Shown piece by piece: positions 4,402-12,560 of a stretch of DNA of 12,677 nucleotides. Numbering within the stretch: position 1 is the first letter of the stretch; each line of letters begins with the position of its first letter. A program made the translations under genes and the position numbers. Source of the stretch: Candidatus Woesearchaeota archaeon (GTDB lineage Archaea > Nanobdellota > Nanobdellia > Woesearchaeales > GW2011-AR15); the NCBI GenBank assembly GCA_038874655.1, contig JAVZBY010000014.1, positions 309 through 12,985 on the forward strand, given 5' to 3'. A model generated the notes under the pieces. The model had not been told where the DNA came from. It did not search any database and saw nothing but the letters and a program-made list of their open reading frames with translations.

Positions 4402-5469
4402 TTAATTTCTAATTTTATAATTTCCCTTATTTATTTGGCTTTGTATATAATCTAATTCTGCTCTAACTGCTCTTAAAATAACCGATTGCATTCTACCTTT
4501 TGCAAAATTTTGAACCGCACCCTGAATGTTTTCATTTTTAAAAGGATTATTATCTATATTTCTTTGATTATCCTCAATTAAATTCCTTGAGAAAAAAAAT
4601 ATTTGTATATATTCATCTCCACCACTACCATGATATCTAAAACCAATATCTCTCTCTCTTGTAATTTCAGATATCGTTTGACTAAAAACTTGTAATAATG
4701 CATCAACCATACTTGCACCAAGATTATTATTATTATCTTTCATTCCCTCCAAATCCATTGCTGCAACTATAATATCATAGCCTTCTTGATCATAACCTAA
4801 TAGATATCTTGCTTGCAAATAAACTAAAGTTTGTTGAAGTGATTGAGTAATAGGATTATCAGATACATTAATTTCTTTTAATTTTTGTTTAAGTAAATAA
4901 TCTATTAATTTTCTTATATTTTCCTGCTTATAAGGTTCATCTTTATTTAATCCCTTTTTAATTTCATCAATATTAACTTGAAATCTTTCAAAAATAGGTT
5001 TTAATTTTTCCTCATAAAATATTTTTTCTAAACTAGAAAATGTTCCATTTACATATGTTCTAATTTTTGAAAGAGCATCAACAATTTCATTGATAGCTTC
5101 TTTTTTAATACTTTCAAAACTATAATTAGGTGTTTGTAAATTCAGTCTATCAGGAGAAACATAAAAACTTGGCAATTTTTGATTTGACAATAAATTTTCT
5201 AAAGGACTTCCTAATGTTTTTTTATTTGTATCCACTCCATCTAGAGATCTTTGAGAAGCATAATTCACCATTAAAATTAATGGAGAGATATTATTTTTAT
5301 ATGCCTCCTCTTCAAAAGTTTCCCATAATTCATAAGTATAAGCTATTCTAGGTAATAATGGCTTCAAAGGTTTAGAATTATTATCCGGAGCATTAACTAA
5401 CACTCTACCCTCTCTTAATAAACACAAGAGACTTCTTTCTTGGTCTGTCAATAAGTTATCTGGCTCCAT
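4402..5469 (-). CDS. Protein with a divergent C-terminal GGDEF (diguanylate cyclase-like) domain and an unknown N-terminal region
   Basis: MDLEGMKDNNNNLGASMVDALL matches the spacing of DxDxFKxxNDxxGHxxGDxxL, followed by RERD and RY-HGS-GGDEY. TATA-like TTTTATAA about 25 nt upstream on the - strand. Confidence 0.72.
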   Translation of the reverse strand: MEPDNLLTDQERSLLCLLREGRVLVNAPDNNSKPLKPLLPRIAYTYELWETFEEEAYKNNISPLILMVNYASQRSLDGVDTNKKTLGSPLENLLSNQKLPSFYVSPDRLNLQTPNYSFESIKKEAINEIVDALSKIRTYVNGTFSSLEKIFYEEKLKPIFERFQVNIDEIKKGLNKDEPYKQENIRKLIDYLLKQKLKEINVSDNPITQSLQQTLVYLQARYLLGYDQEGYDIIVAAMDLEGMKDNNNNLGASMVDALLQVFSQTISEITRERDIGFRYHGSGGDEYIQIFFFSRNLIEDNQRNIDNNPFKNENIQGAVQNFAKGRMQSVILRAVRAELDYIQSQINKGNYKIRN

Positions 5470-5612
5470 TTTTTTATCTTAAAAAGGAAGTATTATATAA
5501 AACATACTTTTTTATTTAATAGTCATAAAATTTTGTGCTATTTTAAATTATTATCAAACAAATTTTTAAAAAGAAATTATTTAAAAAAGAATCAAATTTC
5601 AGAGATAATAAA

Positions 5613-6338
5613 ATGAAAGAGTATAATACAAAAGAAAATAAGAAAAAACCAACAGACATCTCAATAAAAGAATTTATCACTCAAGATAATTCACCTACTT
5701 TATTTAATGAAGAGTATCAAGAATTTTATCATTCTAAATCTGGAGCAATTGAAGAAGCATTTGAAAAATATGTAAAACCTTGTAAAATTTCAGAGCTGGC
5801 AAAAAATGGCTCTATTAAAATATTGGATATTGGTTTTGGTTTAGGTTATAATGTTTTTGCTGCTATTGAAACTGCATTAAATGAAAACCCTAATTGTGAA
5901 ATTGAAATAATAAGTCTAGAAAAAGACCAAGAAATAATTAAAAAAATTAAAAATTTAAAACCAAATCTTAAATATTATTGGATAATAAAAAAATTAGAAT
6001 ATGATCCTAAAACAAATTCTTATTATTATGAAGATAAAAACATTTTTTTAAATATTAAAATAGGCAATGCAATAGAAACAATAAAAACAATAAATGAAAA
6101 AAATATAAAATTTGATGCTGTTTTTTTAGACCCTTTTTCACCTAATAAAAATCCTGAACTCTGGAGTGAAGACTTTTTCAGAGAAATAAAAAGATTAATG
6201 AAACTTAACTCAATTTTAGCAACATATTCCTATGCAAAAAAAATCAGGGAAAATTTAAAAAATTCAGGTTTCGAAGTTTTTGATGGTCCAATTGTTGGAA
6301 GAAGAAGTCCTTCTACCTTAGCTAAATTAAAAATATAA
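5613..6338 (+). CDS. MnmC/MnmD-like (DUF752) SAM-dependent tRNA U34 methyltransferase
   Basis: TQDNSPTL..E.YHS..GAIEEA, ILDIGFGLGYN, FLDPFSP.KNPELW, LATYS. This is a stand-alone methyltransferase half of MnmC. Confidence 0.88.
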   Translation: MKEYNTKENKKKPTDISIKEFITQDNSPTLFNEEYQEFYHSKSGAIEEAFEKYVKPCKISELAKNGSIKILDIGFGLGYNVFAAIETALNENPNCEIEIISLEKDQEIIKKIKNLKPNLKYYWIIKKLEYDPKTNSYYYEDKNIFLNIKIGNAIETIKTINEKNIKFDAVFLDPFSPNKNPELWSEDFFREIKRLMKLNSILATYSYAKKIRENLKNSGFEVFDGPIVGRRSPSTLAKLKI

Positions 6339-6366
6339 AATTTATAGAAAGAAAATTTATAGAAAA
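6337..6366. repeat. 15-bp tandem duplication
   Basis: AAAATTTATAGAAAG (6337-6351) followed by AAAATTTATAGAAAA (6352-6366). It abuts the duplicated tRNA end. Confidence 0.7.
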
Positions 6367-6385
6367 AGTGCTCCTGCGAGGATTT
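6363..6385 (-). repeat. 23-bp direct repeat of the tRNA-Arg 3' end (att-like)
   Basis: AAAAAGTGCTCCTGCGAGGATTT is identical at 6363-6385 and 6524-6546. It covers part of the T-loop, the 3' T-stem, the 3' acceptor strand, the discriminator and 6 nt of trailer. Confidence 0.95.
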
Positions 6386-6523
6386 AGGAACCAATCCTTT
6401 TTACAAAAGCATTGATGGAAAATACTTTTTACTCCGTAAAAAGGTTTTGCTTCGCAAAACATGTAAATATGAATTTTACAAAATACAAAAATAAAAATAA
6501 AAAAATTCTAATAAAACTAAACT
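6386..6523. mobile_element. Non-coding hairpin-rich mini-element or remnant between tRNA 3'-end repeats
   Basis: 138 bp between the 23-bp repeats, containing inverted repeats at 6392-6414, 6425-6443, 6444-6460 and 6462-6480. No ORF. Mobility is inferred only. Confidence 0.45.
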
Positions 6524-6529
6524 AAAAAG

Positions 6530-6667
6530 TGCTCCTGCGAGGATTTGAACCCCGGCCCCAAGATTTTCGCAGTGAATACCCTCTTTAGAGGGTATAACGC
6601 TCCGGCGTTAACCTACGCCTAAGGTTAACCGCAATCTTGTGTGCTATCCAAACTACACTACAGGAGC
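6530..6667 (-). tRNA. tRNA-Arg(GCG) with a 64-nt intron at 37/38 (exons 6667-6629 and 6564-6530)
   Basis: Acceptor GCTCCTG/CAGGAGC+A, D-stem GTGT/GCAC with GGA (A20 Arg identity), anticodon stem CAAGA/TCTTG with loop TT-GCG-G|A, T-arm CGGGG-TTCAAAT-CCTCG. Spliced length 74 nt; CCA not encoded; T-run follows. Confidence 0.92.
6565..6628 (-). other. tRNA intron with a relaxed bulge-helix-bulge motif
   Basis: Exon TTGC (32-35) pairs with intron GCGA (6570-6567), followed by a 3-nt bulge AA|A at the 3' splice site. There is no closing helix after the 5' bulge. Confidence 0.82.
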
Positions 6668-6726
6668 AATAATAGGAGCAATAAAATAATAGAATTTAGA
6701 AAGAAATAAAAATTTTTAGATAATAA

Positions 6727-7419
6727 TTAATTTATTTTTTCAGCATTATTTTTTCCAATAAACCTCTCAAATAAACTTTCTGTTTTTTCAACAATTCTTT
6801 CTTTTAACACTTCTCTTTGTCTAGTTTCATTTCTAATAATAGTTATATTAGGATAAATTGTCTCATATCTACATTCAATTGTTTTTGGTGCAGAAATTAA
6901 TATTGCTTCACCTGTTGGTTTATCTCCTTCTAAACAATCTGTTTCAAAACTATATTTTAAAGAAGAGAATTTAGGTATAAATCCTTTTTTTTCTTCTGTT
7001 TCTACCTTTTTACCATTAATATCAAAAACAAATTTATAAACAAATTCGCCATCAATATTATTTTCATTAGTAATTTTAAAATCTGCATAACACTTATAAT
7101 CAGATAACCCATATGGTTTTGCATATACAAATAACTCGCTTAATTTAACTTTTGCATCTTTTTCAACGCAAACTCTTTCTGATTTAGGATTATCTTTATC
7201 TTCAACTATATCACTAACTTCAACAACATAAGTTTCTATTTCTGAATATTTCTCCTTTGCCTTATATGGAACTCTAATTGCAAATAAACTTATTAAAAAA
7301 ACTAAAAAAATAACTAGAAAAATTATAAAAATTGGAATTTCTACCTTTTTTTTCAAATGTGATTTTATTGATTTTTTTTCTTTTTGTGGTTTTTCTGAAA
7401 CCTTTTGTTCCTCGTTCAT
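6727..7419 (-). CDS. Hypothetical protein with a single N-terminal transmembrane anchor
   Basis: Basic N-terminus, one hydrophobic helix (IPIFIIFLVIFLVFLISLFAI) and a beta-rich region with 4 Cys. The listed GTG at 7428 is part of the SD GGGTGA, so the start is moved to ATG 7419. Confidence 0.8.
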   Translation of the reverse strand: MNEEQKVSEKPQKEKKSIKSHLKKKVEIPIFIIFLVIFLVFLISLFAIRVPYKAKEKYSEIETYVVEVSDIVEDKDNPKSERVCVEKDAKVKLSELFVYAKPYGLSDYKCYADFKITNENNIDGEFVYKFVFDINGKKVETEEKKGFIPKFSSLKYSFETDCLEGDKPTGEAILISAPKTIECRYETIYPNITIIRNETRQREVLKERIVEKTESLFERFIGKNNAEKIN

Positions 7420-7528
7420 AATTATCACCCAATCTAATAAAAATCTAAAATTAACTCATATAAAAAATTATTGATTAGGTAATGAAAAAATTTAAAAATA
7501 TTAAAAAAAAATATTAAAAAATAAAGAT

Positions 7529-10378
7529 TTATTGAAATCCAAATAAACTTGTTTGTTTTGACTCTTTAATTATAGTATCAAAACTTGTATTATAAAAAGT
7601 TAATATTGAATCTGCTATAGGCTTTAATTGTTTTTCAATGTAATGTTCATAATCAATACTATGTTTTATATTCTGAATTGGTTCAGGGCCATCACTAGTC
7701 ATAACATATGCTATTACATTACTAGTTAATTTTTCTAATTTTCTTGCTGCTTTAACATGTGGTGGTGTTGTTTTAGTATAATTATCTAATTCCTTTCTAA
7801 TTGCTTTTTTATATATCAATAAATCATCATATTTTCCATTCTTCAAATCAGAAACAAATTGCTTTATATAATCAAAAACTTCCTTTTTATGAAATATTCT
7901 ATCTAATAATTCTAATTGAAACTTTTTTGATAACTCTGTCCAATCACGCCTAACAAATTCTAATCCTCTAAAATCAATCTTTTCCTTGCCATCTACTATA
8001 ATTAAACCTGCATATCTTTTTTTTGCTCCTTGGTCTGTGCCTCTTATTTTTGGCATAATAAATCTTATAAAGGTTTTTTCAAACTGCAACTCTAAAAATG
8101 AATTCAAATCATATGTATTTTTTACATGTTGTGTCCAAAAATTATTAACATAATCAGAAATTTCTTTTCCAATTATTTGAGCTTTTTCATAATTATCTGC
8201 TTTTGTTTCAATAAATATAGAATCTGTATCACCATAAATAACTCTATAACCTTTATTATCTACAATTTCAGCAGTTTTTTTAACAATAAATTGACCAAAA
8301 TGAGTTATTGCATTTGCCATATCTAAAGAATAAAATCTACATGTTGGATTTGCTAATACACCAAAAAAAGAGTTCATTGTAATTTTAATTGCATAACTTT
8401 TTTCTTGATTTTTTTCTTTTTTAGCTATATCCCTTTGTTTCCATAATTGCTCAATAATTTTAGGTAGAATTCCTATTTTTTTTCTAAAGCGTGCTCCATT
8501 AGGTGCAATAATAATATCATCATCTCTAAATTTCTTATGAATTTCCTTAGGAATAAAAGATAAAGGATCAATATTAAAAGTTCTAATTATACTAGGATAT
8601 AGGCTCTTAAAATCATGCACATTTATAAAATCATAAATCCCTGGAATTGGCTCTCTAACATAACCTCCTTTAATTTTTTCCTCTGTCTCAATATTTGCTG
8701 AATTTGGACAAACATAACCTAATTTCTTTGTTTCTCTAATATACAAACTATCTAATGAGGCAATAGAAGCTTTAACTCTATCTAATTGCATTCCTGTTAA
8801 CAATGATCTTAATATTGTTAATTCTATAATATTCTTTTTCTCCAAAATCTTTAAAACAAGTTCAGCATCTTTAAGGTTATATTCTACCAATTTTAATGGA
8901 TCTTCTAAATAAAGATTTTCTATCTCTTCACCCTTATCAAATTCATCAATTAATAATTTAGATTCACCTAATATTTCTTTTGCTGCTGTTTGTAATTTAT
9001 AATCTTCAATTTCCACAAATGAAGATTTTAAAAGATGCATAGCATCCAAAACCATTCTTCCTGGAAATTCAGCAACAGAATCTTTAAAAAAAGAATCATA
9101 AATCTTTAAAGTACATTGCCAATTAGCCCTTCCTAATATAAAATCAATTTTATGTTCATCAAATTTATTTTTCAAAACTTTAAAATCAAAATCAATTAAG
9201 TTCCAACCTGTAATTATATCGGGATCATAATTTAAAATAATCTCTTTAAATCTTAATAACATAGATTTTTCATCTTGAAAAATTTCAACATAAGGGGTTA
9301 ATTTCAGCTCGGATTTTTTATAAGTTTCCCATTTATTACTTTCCAAAACCAATGTTTTTTTAAAATCTTTTGAATATAATGAAATGCAATATAATTCCTT
9401 CAAATCCATTGAGCTTTCAATATCAATAGAAACCGTTCTTAAATTATTAAATTTTTTAGATATTAATTTTTCTTCATCTGAAAATATCTCTGGTTCTTTA
9501 TAAATTCTATTAACATAATTTCCTTTTTTGTAATCACCTTTTATAAACAAAGCACCTTTTATATCTTTATCAATTAAAAACCTATATACAAATCTAATAT
9601 CTGCTTCATAGGTAATAATATCTAATGACTCTAAAATATCTCTTAAAAAAGAAACATTTTTAGGCAAAAATAATTCAATTTTTATAACATTTTCATCAAA
9701 AAAATTTTTAAATTGTGTTTCTATTATTTTAATAGTATCATTTTTTAGATGATATAACTTCAAAATTTCAGAGTCAGATAAATACTTGGAAAAATTATTT
9801 CTATTATTTGGAGATATACTTTTATTATTATTCAATTTTATAGAAGATAATTTTTTATTACTTTTTATTAAAAAATTAAAAAGCATCTCTCCTATTGAAT
9901 CATAATCTAAATTTAGTTCTCTAATTTTAAGTTTTCCATCATCGAAAGAATCTATACTATTTTCATTGTTAAGATCTTCATAAAAAGCATCATTATCCTC
10001 AATTAAATCTGAATCATATAAATTTTTACTTTCAATTTTTTCATGTTGTTGTGAATTTTCATTAACTTGACTAAATTTTAAATTTGATATCTCTTTTAAT
10101 AAATCCTCAACTTTTTTTTTATCTTTTTTTCTAACATAAAAGTAAGGTTTATAATGATTAATTGTTAAAAAAGAATCACCATCTTCTAATCTACCAAATA
10201 AATAAATATAAGCTTTATTATTTATTATTCTATAGGTTGGATAGACAATAAATCCTGCAACTATTTCGCGATTACTAAAAATTTCACGATTATCAAAAGA
10301 ATTTAAAGTATTTGATAGACTAATATTCTTAATAACACTATTTTCCTTCATATAAAATTCTTCATTTATTTTTTGCAT
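7529..10378 (-). CDS. polB: Family B DNA polymerase (DNA polymerase II-like) with 3'-5' exonuclease and C-terminal PIP box
   Basis: ExoI DIES, ExoII GWNLIDFD, ExoIII YNLKDA; polymerase motifs DFKSLYPSII, KITMNSFFG, YGDTDS, KKRYAG; C-terminal QTSLFGF. Confidence 0.96.
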   Translation of the reverse strand: MQKINEEFYMKENSVIKNISLSNTLNSFDNREIFSNREIVAGFIVYPTYRIINNKAYIYLFGRLEDGDSFLTINHYKPYFYVRKKDKKKVEDLLKEISNLKFSQVNENSQQHEKIESKNLYDSDLIEDNDAFYEDLNNENSIDSFDDGKLKIRELNLDYDSIGEMLFNFLIKSNKKLSSIKLNNNKSISPNNRNNFSKYLSDSEILKLYHLKNDTIKIIETQFKNFFDENVIKIELFLPKNVSFLRDILESLDIITYEADIRFVYRFLIDKDIKGALFIKGDYKKGNYVNRIYKEPEIFSDEEKLISKKFNNLRTVSIDIESSMDLKELYCISLYSKDFKKTLVLESNKWETYKKSELKLTPYVEIFQDEKSMLLRFKEIILNYDPDIITGWNLIDFDFKVLKNKFDEHKIDFILGRANWQCTLKIYDSFFKDSVAEFPGRMVLDAMHLLKSSFVEIEDYKLQTAAKEILGESKLLIDEFDKGEEIENLYLEDPLKLVEYNLKDAELVLKILEKKNIIELTILRSLLTGMQLDRVKASIASLDSLYIRETKKLGYVCPNSANIETEEKIKGGYVREPIPGIYDFINVHDFKSLYPSIIRTFNIDPLSFIPKEIHKKFRDDDIIIAPNGARFRKKIGILPKIIEQLWKQRDIAKKEKNQEKSYAIKITMNSFFGVLANPTCRFYSLDMANAITHFGQFIVKKTAEIVDNKGYRVIYGDTDSIFIETKADNYEKAQIIGKEISDYVNNFWTQHVKNTYDLNSFLELQFEKTFIRFIMPKIRGTDQGAKKRYAGLIIVDGKEKIDFRGLEFVRRDWTELSKKFQLELLDRIFHKKEVFDYIKQFVSDLKNGKYDDLLIYKKAIRKELDNYTKTTPPHVKAARKLEKLTSNVIAYVMTSDGPEPIQNIKHSIDYEHYIEKQLKPIADSILTFYNTSFDTIIKESKQTSLFGFQ

Positions 10379-10380
10379 AT

Positions 10381-10400
10381 AAAAAAAAAAGAAAAAGAAA
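10381..10400 (-). terminator. Oligo-T tract, candidate archaeal terminator of the micro-ORF transcript
   Basis: The - strand reads TTTCTTTTTCTTTTTTTTTT, 20 nt after the micro-ORF stop. It overlaps the spacer of the putative leaderless polB promoter (TTTAAATA 10408-10401). Confidence 0.45.
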
Positions 10401-10420
10401 TATTTAAACTTTTATTCAAT

Positions 10421-10477
10421 TTATTTCTTTTTTGATGATTTTTTTGTTGATTTTTTTGCAGCTTTTTTTGCAGCCAT
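10421..10477 (-). CDS. 18-aa lysine-rich micropeptide MAAKKAAKKSTKKSSKKK
   Basis: ATG 10477 to TAA 10421. Perfect archaeal SD GAGGTGA (10488-10482) 4 nt upstream, BRE/TATA GGAAAAA-TATATAAA (10544-10530), and a T-tract downstream. Below the ORF-track size cut-off. Confidence 0.7.
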   Translation of the reverse strand: MAAKKAAKKSTKKSSKKK

Positions 10478-10784
10478 AATTTCACCTCAAAATATTATAT
10501 TAAAATATTAAAATTTATAGCAATTGTTATTTATATATTTTTCCATTCTTTTTTATCATAATTATTAAAAAAATATTCTATTTAGAATAATAAAATTAAA
10601 AATAGAAAAACATTATTCTAATAAAAAATACACCTAATTCGAAAAAAAATCGCAATATAATAATTTAAGATAAAAAATAAAATTTAAAATAATAAAATAA
10701 AAAATATGTCTAAATTCAATTTACTTTTATCAAAAATATATCTTTCTCAATAAATTTAAATAAATAAAATTTTTTTTATAAAAT

Positions 10785-12560
10785 ATGTCCAAAATGTCAA
10801 AAAGAATTGCTATTGTTGATAATTCAAAATTAAAAGATGATGAAAAGAAAAAGTATATTCAAAGTTTATGTCCAATAAATAGAACTGGAAAAGAATGCAT
10901 AACAATACAAGGAAAGAAACTTTTAATAGATGAGTCGTTATGTATTGGCTGTGGCATCTGTGTAAATGCTGCACCAGAAGCAATTAAAATTATAAATTTA
11001 CCTAGTGCATTAGAAAAACAACCAATTCATAGACATGGTTTAAATGGTTTTGTTTTATATAATTTGCCTATTCCTGTCTTTGGAAAAGTTGTTGGTATTA
11101 TAGGTATTAATGGAATAGGAAAAAGTACAGCAATAAAAATTTTAGCTGATGTTTTAAAACCCAATTTAGGTGATGTAGGAAAAGAAGCAACCATTCAAGA
11201 TTTAATAAATTATTTTAAAGGAACAGAAGCCCAGTTGTATTTTGAAAAAGTAAAAAAAGGTTTAGTAAAAGTTGCTTATAAACCACAGCAAGTTGATTTA
11301 ATAGCAAAACAATATACTGGAAAAGTTATTGAGCTATTAAAAAAAGTTGATTCTCAAAACGATATTTCAAGATTGGAAGAAATAACTAAATTGTTTGAGT
11401 TAGAAAAAATATTAGATAGAGATATCTCTGTAATATCTGGTGGAGAGCTTCAAAGAGTTGCTATTGCAGCAACCTTTCTAAAAAAAGCAAATTTATATAT
11501 TTTTGATGAGCCAACTTCTTATTTAGATATTAAACAAAGATTAAAAATTTCTAAATTAATAAAAAACTTAGCTTCAGAAGAAAATGAAATTGCTGTCATT
11601 GTTATTGAACATGATTTAATTGCACTGGACTATATGGCTGACTTAGTTCATGTAATGTATGGCAGCCAAGGTTCTTATGGTGTTGTTAGTCAATTAAAGC
11701 AAACAAGAAATGGGATTAATGCCTTTTTAGAAGGTTATTTAAAAGAAGAGAATGTAAGATTCAGAGAAACAAAATTGCAATTCAATGTTAAAAATCCATT
11801 TAAAACTACAGCAACCCAAACTTTAATAAAATGGCCTGCATTAAATAAAAAAATTGGTGATTTTGAATTATCCTCTAACGAGGGGGACATTAAATATAAT
11901 GAAAAAGTCGGAATTTTAGGTGAAAACGGAATAGGAAAAACAAGTTTTGTCAGAATTTTAGCAGGAGAACTAAATCCTGATAACATAAAATTAGAATTGA
12001 AAATAAAAGTTAGTTATAAACCACAATATTTAAATCAAGATTCTAATGAATTAGTTATGGTTGTTTTGCAAGAAGCATTAGAAAAATATGAAACTGAATT
12101 AATAAGACCATTAGATATTAAACCTCTTTTATTAAAAAAAATAAATGAGCTTTCTGGTGGAGAGCTTCAAAGAGTTGCTATTGCTTTGTGTTTATCTAAA
12201 GATGCTGATCTATATTTATTAGATGAACCCTCTGCTTATTTAGATGTTGAACAAAGAATTGTCGTCTCAAAAGTTATTTCAAATGTCGTTGAACTAAGAA
12301 AAGTATCTGCCATAATAGTTGACCATGATTTATTATTTTTAGATTATTTATCTGAAAGATTAATGGTCTTTCAAGGTAAGCCTGCTGTTTTTGGAAAAGC
12401 ATTAGGTCCTTTTGATTTAGAAACTGGAATGAACACATTATTAAAAGATTTGGAAATAACACTTAGAAGAGATGAAGAAACAAAAAGACCAAGAATCAAT
12501 AAAGAGAATTCATTCAAAGACAGGGAACAGAAAAGAGAAGGGAAATATTACTATACATAA
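10785..12560 (+). CDS. rli1: ABCE1/Rli1 ribosome recycling ATPase
   Basis: N-terminal Fe-S domain, two NBDs (GINGIGKS and GENGIGKT; SGGELQR twice; FDEP and LDEP; EHD and DHD), hinge RRDEETKRPRINK. The start may be 10785 or 10794. Confidence 0.97.
   Translation: MSKMSKRIAIVDNSKLKDDEKKKYIQSLCPINRTGKECITIQGKKLLIDESLCIGCGICVNAAPEAIKIINLPSALEKQPIHRHGLNGFVLYNLPIPVFGKVVGIIGINGIGKSTAIKILADVLKPNLGDVGKEATIQDLINYFKGTEAQLYFEKVKKGLVKVAYKPQQVDLIAKQYTGKVIELLKKVDSQNDISRLEEITKLFELEKILDRDISVISGGELQRVAIAATFLKKANLYIFDEPTSYLDIKQRLKISKLIKNLASEENEIAVIVIEHDLIALDYMADLVHVMYGSQGSYGVVSQLKQTRNGINAFLEGYLKEENVRFRETKLQFNVKNPFKTTATQTLIKWPALNKKIGDFELSSNEGDIKYNEKVGILGENGIGKTSFVRILAGELNPDNIKLELKIKVSYKPQYLNQDSNELVMVVLQEALEKYETELIRPLDIKPLLLKKINELSGGELQRVAIALCLSKDADLYLLDEPSAYLDVEQRIVVSKVISNVVELRKVSAIIVDHDLLFLDYLSERLMVFQGKPAVFGKALGPFDLETGMNTLLKDLEITLRRDEETKRPRINKENSFKDREQKREGKYYYT

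Follow-up and report, generated by a model that had tools for sequence, protein, structure and literature searches.

Can a spacer of A-rich DNA between two divergent archaeal genes hold a protein-coding gene of only 18 codons, and if so, what might its product do? The question is raised by a stretch of 12,677 nucleotides (nt) from a Candidatus Woesearchaeota archaeon (assembly GCA_038874655.1, contig JAVZBY010000014.1, positions 309 to 12,985), here called the window. In it, a lysine-rich micro open reading frame (micro-ORF) lies between polB, which encodes a family B DNA polymerase, and a divergently transcribed gene for an ABCE1-type ATPase. Comparison with related genomes leads us to regard the micro-ORF as very probably a translated gene. 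To the fuller reading, that it is an independent gene whose product acts in trans as a nucleic-acid-binding polycation, we give about an even chance.

A lysine-rich micro-ORF and its orthologues

The micro-ORF runs on the minus strand from an ATG at 10477-10475 to a TAA at 10423-10421 (Table 1). Nine of the 18 residues of its peptide are lysine and none is acidic, and the sequence follows the pattern xxKK four times before a final K. A preliminary description, made from the letters of the DNA alone, had reported this frame together with a B recognition element (BRE) and TATA box, a Shine-Dalgarno (SD) sequence considered the best match in the window, a 20-nt T-tract and a 12-nt repeat. All of these are present as described; the promoter element recurs in relatives, and the T-tract lies outside the interval that had been marked. 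Tandem Repeats Finder confirms the 12-nt period (3.6 copies at 10428-10470). SD sequences are complementary to the 3′ end of archaeal 16S rRNA, and in this window they are exceptional: 10 of 12 candidate genes have none and carry a TATA-like octamer that ends 20-22 nt before the ATG, the spacing of leaderless archaeal mRNAs. The two candidates that do have an SD are the micro-ORF and an ORF of 233 amino acids (aa) at 6727-7428. The latter has no Pfam family, and its GTG start as listed is probably wrong, since its GGTGA stands 5 nt before an internal ATG at 7419. Taken by itself, the window makes a weak case for the micro-ORF. Its repeat is open in all three forward frames, and one SD-ATG pair is about what chance supplies per 25 kb.

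We therefore rely on relatives, namely 80 loci retrieved with the PolB protein of the window as query against one genome per species. Because most of these loci are titled as Woesearchaeota, Nanoarchaeota or Pacearchaeota metagenome-assembled genomes, we place the source of the window among the DPANN archaea of this group. The N-terminus of polB is included in 72 of the 80 loci, and 69 have at least 150 nt upstream of it. We looked for short Lys/Arg-rich ORFs on the same strand, at most 450 nt upstream of polB. Five of the 72 loci (L001, L003, L008, L009 and L010) carry an SD-led, lysine-rich ORF at the equivalent place. The six peptides are MAAKKAAKKSTKKSSKKK in the window (18 aa, SD GAGGTGA), MAAKKAAKKTTKKATKKK in L001 (18 aa, GAGGTGA), MPAKKKKAAVKKGKKKK in L003 (17 aa, GAGGTGA), MPVKKKAAKKPAAKKKPVKKAAKKTKAKKKK in L009 (31 aa, GGTGA), MPAKKKKPAKKKATKKKATKKKKKK in L010 (25 aa, GGAGGT) and MPKKKAKKKATKKKTTKKKTKKKKKR in L008 (26 aa, GAGGT). 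In L008 the SD stands before the second in-frame ATG, and the 26-aa peptide is read from there; the natural ORF of this locus has 43 aa. In every cassette the GGT core of the SD lies 6-8 nt from the ATG, and the stop codon lies 42-102 nt from the ATG of polB on the same strand.

Are such ORFs simply common in these genomes? In a blind scan of both strands of the 80 loci and the window (1,216,863 nt) for ATG-initiated ORFs of 12-60 aa with at least 45% Lys, we found 13. Those with an SD are exactly the six upstream of polB, and the other seven are scattered and SD-less. (The automatic flag for an SD caught five, each of them upstream of polB; it passed over L008, whose SD stands before the second in-frame ATG.) The preliminary description had named as grounds for rejection relatives that lack the SD or ATG or that show frame-breaking indels. 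The comparison went the other way: SD, ATG and an open Lys-rich frame are kept in all six orthologous cassettes, as is a terminator. With the relatives considered, the micro-ORF appears far beyond chance.

Is it the peptide that has been kept, or only the DNA? The 129 residues that follow Met in the six peptides comprise K78, A25, T11, P7, S3, V3, G1 and R1, with no acidic residue. Read in +1, the same DNA gives L, Q, R, N and C, with E in addition once +2 is included, and 13 stops interrupt +2 over the six loci. L008 and L009 are richer in GC (37-38%) and retain Lys with the help of 6-7 AAG codons; the A/G differences in these two loci read as synonymous changes at third positions of the proposed frame. 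The period of the DNA repeat varies between loci while the character of the peptide persists; composition and charge are conserved and residue order and length (17-31 aa) are not. In the nearest relative, L001, the ORF is identical to that of the window at 53 of 57 nt, against 0.61 at the third codon positions of ABCE1 and PolB and 0.58 in the distal spacer; the binomial probability of at least 53 of 57 matches at 0.61 is 4e-8. The two peptides have three differences (Ser to Thr, Ser to Ala and Ser to Thr). From the micro-ORF stop to the polB ATG, 40 of 42 nt are identical.

These comparisons bear on the possibility that there is no peptide gene at all. What is conserved would then be an element of the DNA or RNA (phased A-tracts, an element close to the promoter or a small RNA) that is open by chance, or else a chance ORF in an A-rich spacer. 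Such spacers readily yield Lys codons, the repeat of the window leaves all three frames open, the conservation extends into the 42 nt downstream of the ORF, and gene callers have not predicted the ORF (four sequences from three loci are absent from a large protein collection, as detailed below). A non-coding element, however, would not be expected to keep an SD and ATG at 6-8 nt spacing in all six loci when most genes of the window are SD-less, nor to place its AAA/AAG changes at third positions of one frame. The +1 frame lacks the clean K/A/T/P set and the +2 frame is broken by stops, and the peptide character survives differences in repeat period between loci. Rfam finds no family in the spacer, and the region in the window folds no better than shuffled sequences. 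The open frames of the opposite strand have no start codon, and an antisense gene was rejected on this ground. We consider a non-coding origin of the signal very unlikely. Among the orthologues, SD spacing, ATG, open frame, stop and synonymous variation appear together as in an SD-led archaeal protein-coding gene, and from the conservation of these elements and the constraint on the peptide we infer that the cassette is transcribed and translated.

Table 1. Positions of the micro-ORF, its signals and the two flanking genes in the window
Feature	Position	Strand	Basis or remark
Micro-ORF, ATG + 17 codons + TAA, peptide MAAKKAAKKSTKKSSKKK	10421..10477	-	Sequence reading, comparison with relatives
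Shine-Dalgarno sequence GAGGTGA	10482..10488	-	4 nt before ATG; sole GAGGTGA on either strand of the window
Predicted micro-ORF promoter, BRE-like purine-rich GGAAAAA + TATA box TATATAAATA	10528..10544	-	Sequence reading; conserved in cassettes
Palindrome TATTCTAAATAGAATA (TATTC-N6-GAATA), putative transcription-factor site	10574..10589	.	About 35 nt upstream of micro-ORF TATA box
Degenerate second palindrome copy (TATGA-N7-GAATG)	10544..10560	-	By eye; abuts promoter, starts 29 nt downstream of first
T-tract TTTCTTTTTCTTTTTTTTTT, likely oligo-U terminator of micro-ORF transcript	10381..10400	-	Overlaps spacer between polB TATA box and polB ATG
polB TATA box TTTAAATA	10401..10408	-	22 nt before polB ATG (10378); context, outside the cassette
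Family B DNA polymerase (polB), 949 aa	7529..10378	-	Pfam DNA_pol_B 6.6e-53, DNA_pol_B_exo1 1.8e-23; downstream neighbour of micro-ORF
ABCE1-type twin ABC ATPase + Fe-S domain	10785..12560	+	Pfam ABC_tran x2 + Fer4; divergent upstream neighbour

Signals of the cassette and the promoter of polB

A BRE followed by a TATA box is the established form of archaeal promoters. All six cassettes have a TATA element (TATATAAATA, ATTTAAATA, TTTAAATA or TTTATATA) 33-58 nt before the micro-ORF ATG. Upstream of this element lies the palindrome TATTC-N6-GAATA, which is not significant within the window alone. It has nine exact matches in the 1,216,863 nt, and six of these fall at -82 to -133 from a micro-ORF ATG, in intervals where about 0.003 would be expected. 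Five of the six cassettes have the palindrome (the window, L001 with two copies, L003, L008 and L009) and L010 has none. The second copy, exact in L001 and with one mismatch in L009, stands in each exactly 29 nt after the first and abuts the promoter; by eye, L003 has the same degenerate second copy as the window at the same offset. A palindrome so placed might serve as an operator, with a transcription factor controlling the micro-ORF through it. We also considered whether it could be a feature of the ABCE1 promoter and rejected this: in L008, where a gene for MTHFR takes the place of ABCE1 upstream, palindrome, promoter and micro-ORF stay beside polB, and outgroups with the ABCE1/polB pair have no palindrome.

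Downstream of the ORF, an TTCTTTTTC(T)n element is found in L001, L003 and L009 as in the window, and a shorter TTCTTTTTC in L008. In L008 and L010 the ORF is followed by a GC-rich hairpin and then U's (z = -2.5 and -4.1), and in L009 by a small hairpin with a 20-nt U-rich tract, while the window, L001 and L003 have a U-rich tract alone and no terminator hairpin. Oligo-T tracts suffice as archaeal terminators, according to excerpts of two papers (PMC2253867, PMC8716108). Since L004, L007 and L002, which have no micro-ORF, show the same geometry of the polB TATA box but no T-tract, we assign the tract to the micro-ORF cassette.

Does the cassette serve polB? Among the readings first proposed was a poly-Lys leader that modulates polB. 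More generally, the micro-ORF could be a cis-acting unit, in which translation of its Lys-codon runs, or transcription through the polB TATA box, would set termination, read-through or promoter occlusion, and the peptide would be a by-product. Its position suits such a role. The ORF is directly upstream of polB on the same strand in all six cassettes, even in L008 with its changed other neighbour; there is no copy elsewhere in the 1.22 Mb scanned; and its absence from L004, L005 and L007 coincides with a rearranged region upstream of polB. It resembles the leader peptides of attenuators in being a short same-strand upstream ORF that favours one amino acid and has a terminator after it, and leader peptides likewise conserve composition rather than sequence.

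The comparison weakens at the downstream gene. Where attenuated genes follow their leader, polB has a promoter of its own after the terminator, and it is a DNA polymerase rather than a lysine-pathway gene, which leaves no rationale for classical amino-acid attenuation. In all six cassettes polB has a TATA box 20-22 nt ahead of its ATG, a geometry like that of other genes in the window. This canonical leaderless promoter has the same geometry in relatives without a micro-ORF, and polB has no SD with which a read-through transcript could be translated. Judged from these signals, polB is served by its own leaderless promoter downstream of the micro-ORF and would not depend on a leader transcript. 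In L008, L009 and L010 the terminator even comes ahead of the TATA box of polB. The arrangement differs in the window, L001 and L003, where the T-tract follows this TATA box and precedes the polB ATG, so that transcription of the micro-ORF must cross the polB promoter.

Coupling to translation can also be imagined. The terminator hairpin begins 10 nt (L010) and 3 nt (L009) past the stop, within the reach of a terminating ribosome, and in E. coli iterated AAA Lys codons reduce protein output (PMC4363877, in excerpt). The longest A runs in the window are only 7 nt, however, and no consistent long poly(A) track is shared by the six cassettes. The spacers of the window, L001 and L003 fold no better than shuffles or have no terminator hairpin, and no switch between alternative structures is evident; alternative RNA pairing was not found around the micro-ORF, although competing pairings were not examined systematically. 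Together, the separate polB promoter and the terminator that intervenes in three of six loci weaken the proposed leader, and we consider a cis-acting unit unlikely. A read-through fusion with PolB was also rejected: the micro-ORF and polB are in the same frame in the window and L001 (99 nt apart) but differ in frame in L003 (104 nt) and L009 (187 nt), and two stop codons separate them.

Candidate functions of the peptide

In protein searches, the 18-mer of the window was represented by its longer orthologues (at least 25 aa). Three such orthologues match no Pfam family at E-values up to 10, HC2, Linker_histone and Ribosomal_L41 included. NCBIfam at the same limit gives no meaningful match, its lone line being a chance F0F1 subunit A (E = 8.2) with the 43-aa reading of L008, and no PDB chain, those of ribosome entries included, matches the L009 and L010 peptides at E up to 10. 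With the L009 peptide, phmmer returns no hit among 1.84 billion representative proteins; the 43-aa L008 ORF shares words with 157 candidates, of which none has an E-value of 0.01 or lower. An exact look-up in a collection of 15 billion proteins finds none of four sequences (both reading starts of L008, L009 and L010). Blank searches say little for short, low-complexity queries. In the ESM Atlas, the clusters closest to the L009 peptide are unnamed and consist of proteins of 30-39 aa (scores 0.95-0.96). Among named clusters, the nearest (score 0.86) has Pfam HC2 on 20% of its members; the Atlas rates both results as leads only. A literature search, limited in coverage and terms, found no description of such a gene.

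The closest likeness is to H1-like Lys-rich proteins without a globular domain, such as chlamydial Hc2, bacterial and trypanosomatid H1-like proteins and Toxoplasma TgH1-like, and to the tail of mycobacterial Ku. The micro-ORF peptides share with them low-complexity short repeats of K, A, P, T and S, the lack of acidic and aromatic residues, and conservation of composition over sequence. According to excerpts of the respective papers, Hc2 ranges from 165 to 237 aa by its count of Lys-rich pentamers (PMC2848022), Ku carries PAKKA repeats (PMC3553676), and TgH1-like matches only the C-terminal part of H1 (PMC9769792); size variation through repeat number is thus a further likeness to Hc2. The micro-ORF peptides differ in being several-fold smaller, at 17-31 aa, and below gene-caller thresholds. 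They are also archaeal (DPANN), and they come from an SD-led cassette of their own with a putative palindromic operator; their DNA binding is something we infer. A peptide of 17-31 aa is too short to hold the winged-helix globular domain of Linker_histone. It matches no HC2 profile, and what it does have is the Lys/Ala/Pro/Thr/Ser composition free of acidic residues. Of the earlier suggestion of a protamine- or H1-like peptide, the part that stands is thus the fit in composition and in composition-only conservation, and membership in the H1 or Hc2 families by sequence does not. Conservation limited to composition, together with variable length, is what H1-like Lys-rich DNA-binding tails show.

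Tiny basic peptides are also found in ribosomes, Thx being one of them and eL41, which sits in the h27/h44/h45 pocket, another. Could the micro-ORF encode a lineage-specific ribosome-associated peptide, one that occupies a pocket in the rRNA as a functional counterpart of eL41, bS22 or Thx? The strong SD and the promoter suggest high expression, and in five of the six cassettes the divergent neighbour is the ribosome-recycling factor ABCE1, though in L008 the ORF stays with polB and not with ABCE1. Excerpts of one paper describe such ribosomal peptides as existing and easily missed, archaeal eL41 as having 37 aa (an N-terminal extension and a 20-residue helix), and a 33-aa bS22 as filling the eL41 site in actinobacterial ribosomes (PMC7005279). 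The micro-ORF peptides are comparably short, basic and easily overlooked, and they too have a stand-alone gene (PMC7005279, in excerpt). They have no similarity to eL41 in sequence, however, with no match to Ribosomal_L41 or to any PDB chain, and they are Lys/Ala- rather than Arg/Lys-rich. Unlike peptides of a fixed pocket, they vary from 17 to 31 aa and keep no residue order among genomes whose PolB proteins are 56-80% identical. They occur in one clade, and near polB they are absent from three members of that clade and from all outgroups. A palindromic regulator site would also be unusual for a constitutive ribosomal gene. The eL41-like role put forward earlier thus finds no support in sequence, and we judge a ribosomal peptide quite unlikely, more so than a cis-acting unit. 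A third kind of peptide, an amphipathic helix or antimicrobial peptide, was set aside by eye, the xxKK period spreading Lys round the helix with no hydrophobic face and no signal peptide.

We favour an independent, trans-acting polycation gene over a polB leader peptide and a ribosomal peptide because the micro-ORF appears to have its own operator, promoter, SD and terminator, because polB has a separate, canonical promoter, and because composition and charge are conserved where order and length are not. In this reading, the BRE/TATA promoter, with the palindromic regulator site upstream, would drive a short leadered mRNA. The strong SD and ATG would yield a peptide of 17-31 residues, nearly all Lys with Ala, Thr, Pro and Ser, and transcription would end at the U-tract, or at a hairpin with U-tract, just ahead of the leaderless promoter of polB. 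The product would be a sequence-nonspecific polycation (about +9 in the version of the window) that binds and neutralises nucleic acid like the C-terminal tail of H1 or the tails of bacterial H1-like proteins. Its target would most likely be the AT-rich chromosome, possibly at replication; this last link is proposed because of the constant position beside polB, which hints at it. The picture of a minimal nucleoid peptide for an ultra-small cell, as in the preliminary description, may apply.

Several observations weigh against the reading that we favour. The ORF is found in only six genomes. L004, L005 and L007, which belong to the same clade, have no such ORF within about 10 kb on either side of polB, and because of these three the micro-ORF may be dispensable. 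The peptides are of low complexity, so that their orthology is one of position and not of alignment and ordinary sequence statistics are weak. The window repeat, as noted, is open in all three frames, and the 95% identity downstream of the stop could reflect the function of the polB promoter instead of a terminator. There is no family match in Pfam or NCBIfam (E up to 10) or among PDB sequences, and recognition in the ESM Atlas is low (1364), with the closest clusters unnamed. Finally, the constant place beside polB fits a role in cis equally well.

It is tempting to go further and to imagine a de novo gene that arose from A-rich spacer by expansion of the 12-nt repeat and came to supply a regulated free oligolysine. 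Such a molecule, a polycation made on ribosomes, would serve ultra-small DPANN cells alongside or instead of polyamines and histone tails; it would neutralise and compact the AT-rich chromosome, be switched on by a dedicated transcription factor at TATTC-N6-GAATA and be coupled to replication by PolB. We offer this chain of steps as speculation that is, taken whole, improbable.

Origin and surroundings of the cassette

When did the cassette arise? We built a FastTree phylogeny of 69 PolB rows (without L009, L023, L054 and L065) and a quick IQ-TREE phylogeny of 24 chosen rows that include L009. In both, all carriers fall in one clade of nine together with the non-carriers L004, L005 and L007 (SH-aLRT 99 in IQ-TREE). 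The trees are unrooted, and two changes suffice for the distribution of carriers on them. In the window, L001, L003, L009 and L010, the upstream neighbour of polB is the divergent ABCE1. The same back-to-back pairing, with spacers of 63-498 nt, occurs in the outgroups L014, L016, L017 and L028, and none of these spacers holds a micro-ORF. In the non-carrier L005 the start of ABCE1 is about 1.7 kb upstream of polB, and in L004 about 4.9 kb of other genes separate the two. That segment (5108-9995 of locus L004, which comes from a complete chromosome) holds small membrane-protein-like ORFs and two 57-aa basic ORFs where sister lineages have the cassette.

On the simplest reading, the cassette would have arisen in the ABCE1-polB spacer of the ancestor of this one Woesearchaeota clade and been lost or moved when the spacer was rearranged; gain followed by loss is one reading of these unrooted trees. 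Length would then have drifted through gain and loss of short repeat units, with composition, frame, SD and position retained.

Elsewhere in the window (about 24% GC), Pfam assigns genes for glutamate dehydrogenase, a CoA-binding protein, a DtxR-type repressor, an FTR1 permease, PTH2 and a methyltransferase, in addition to polB and the ABCE1-type ATPase, which is 85% identical to its counterpart in L001. A 355-aa protein at 4402-5469 (minus strand) matches part of the GGDEF (diguanylate cyclase) domain profile (positions 28-82 of 161, E = 2.4e-7), which is unusual in an archaeon. Rfam reports a tRNA at 6530-6667 (minus strand; 47.9 bits, E = 7e-8) that at 138 nt has room for an intron, and ARAGORN reports none anywhere in the window. 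Just downstream of polB in L008 (12311-12865), L009 (12352-12882) and L010 (12615-13157) is a convergent ORF of 176-184 aa, on the minus strand in all three, with no Pfam family.

PolB itself varies in length. The proteins of the window (949 aa) and of L001 (902 aa; 9816-12524) have an N-terminal extension and, after about residue 85, a low-complexity insert of about 100-150 aa rich in N, K, S, D and E; relatives with a PolB of 775-780 aa have neither. With the composition-based statistics of BLASTP and tblastn, these two proteins share a match of only 66 residues, and with comp_based_stats set to 0 the match becomes 70% over 938 columns. The default statistics hide true homology in such low-GC, Lys/Asn-rich proteins, which is why the row for L001 in the PolB locus search was odd.

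What would such a gene mean? If the peptide is made, the micro-ORF would rank with the shortest stand-alone protein genes that are known to be conserved, and it would be the first DPANN small-protein family with a complete, comparatively supported cassette of operator, promoter, SD, ORF and terminator. Because the four queried sequences from three loci are absent from the 15-billion-protein collection, it appears that gene callers systematically miss genes of this kind. Because the two neighbouring genes are also paired in outgroups that lack the ORF, the locus would offer a clean case for gene birth in a dated intergenic spacer. The size of the 18-mer makes the hypothesis easy to approach experimentally, and its SD-led translation would be a special signal in an otherwise leaderless genome.

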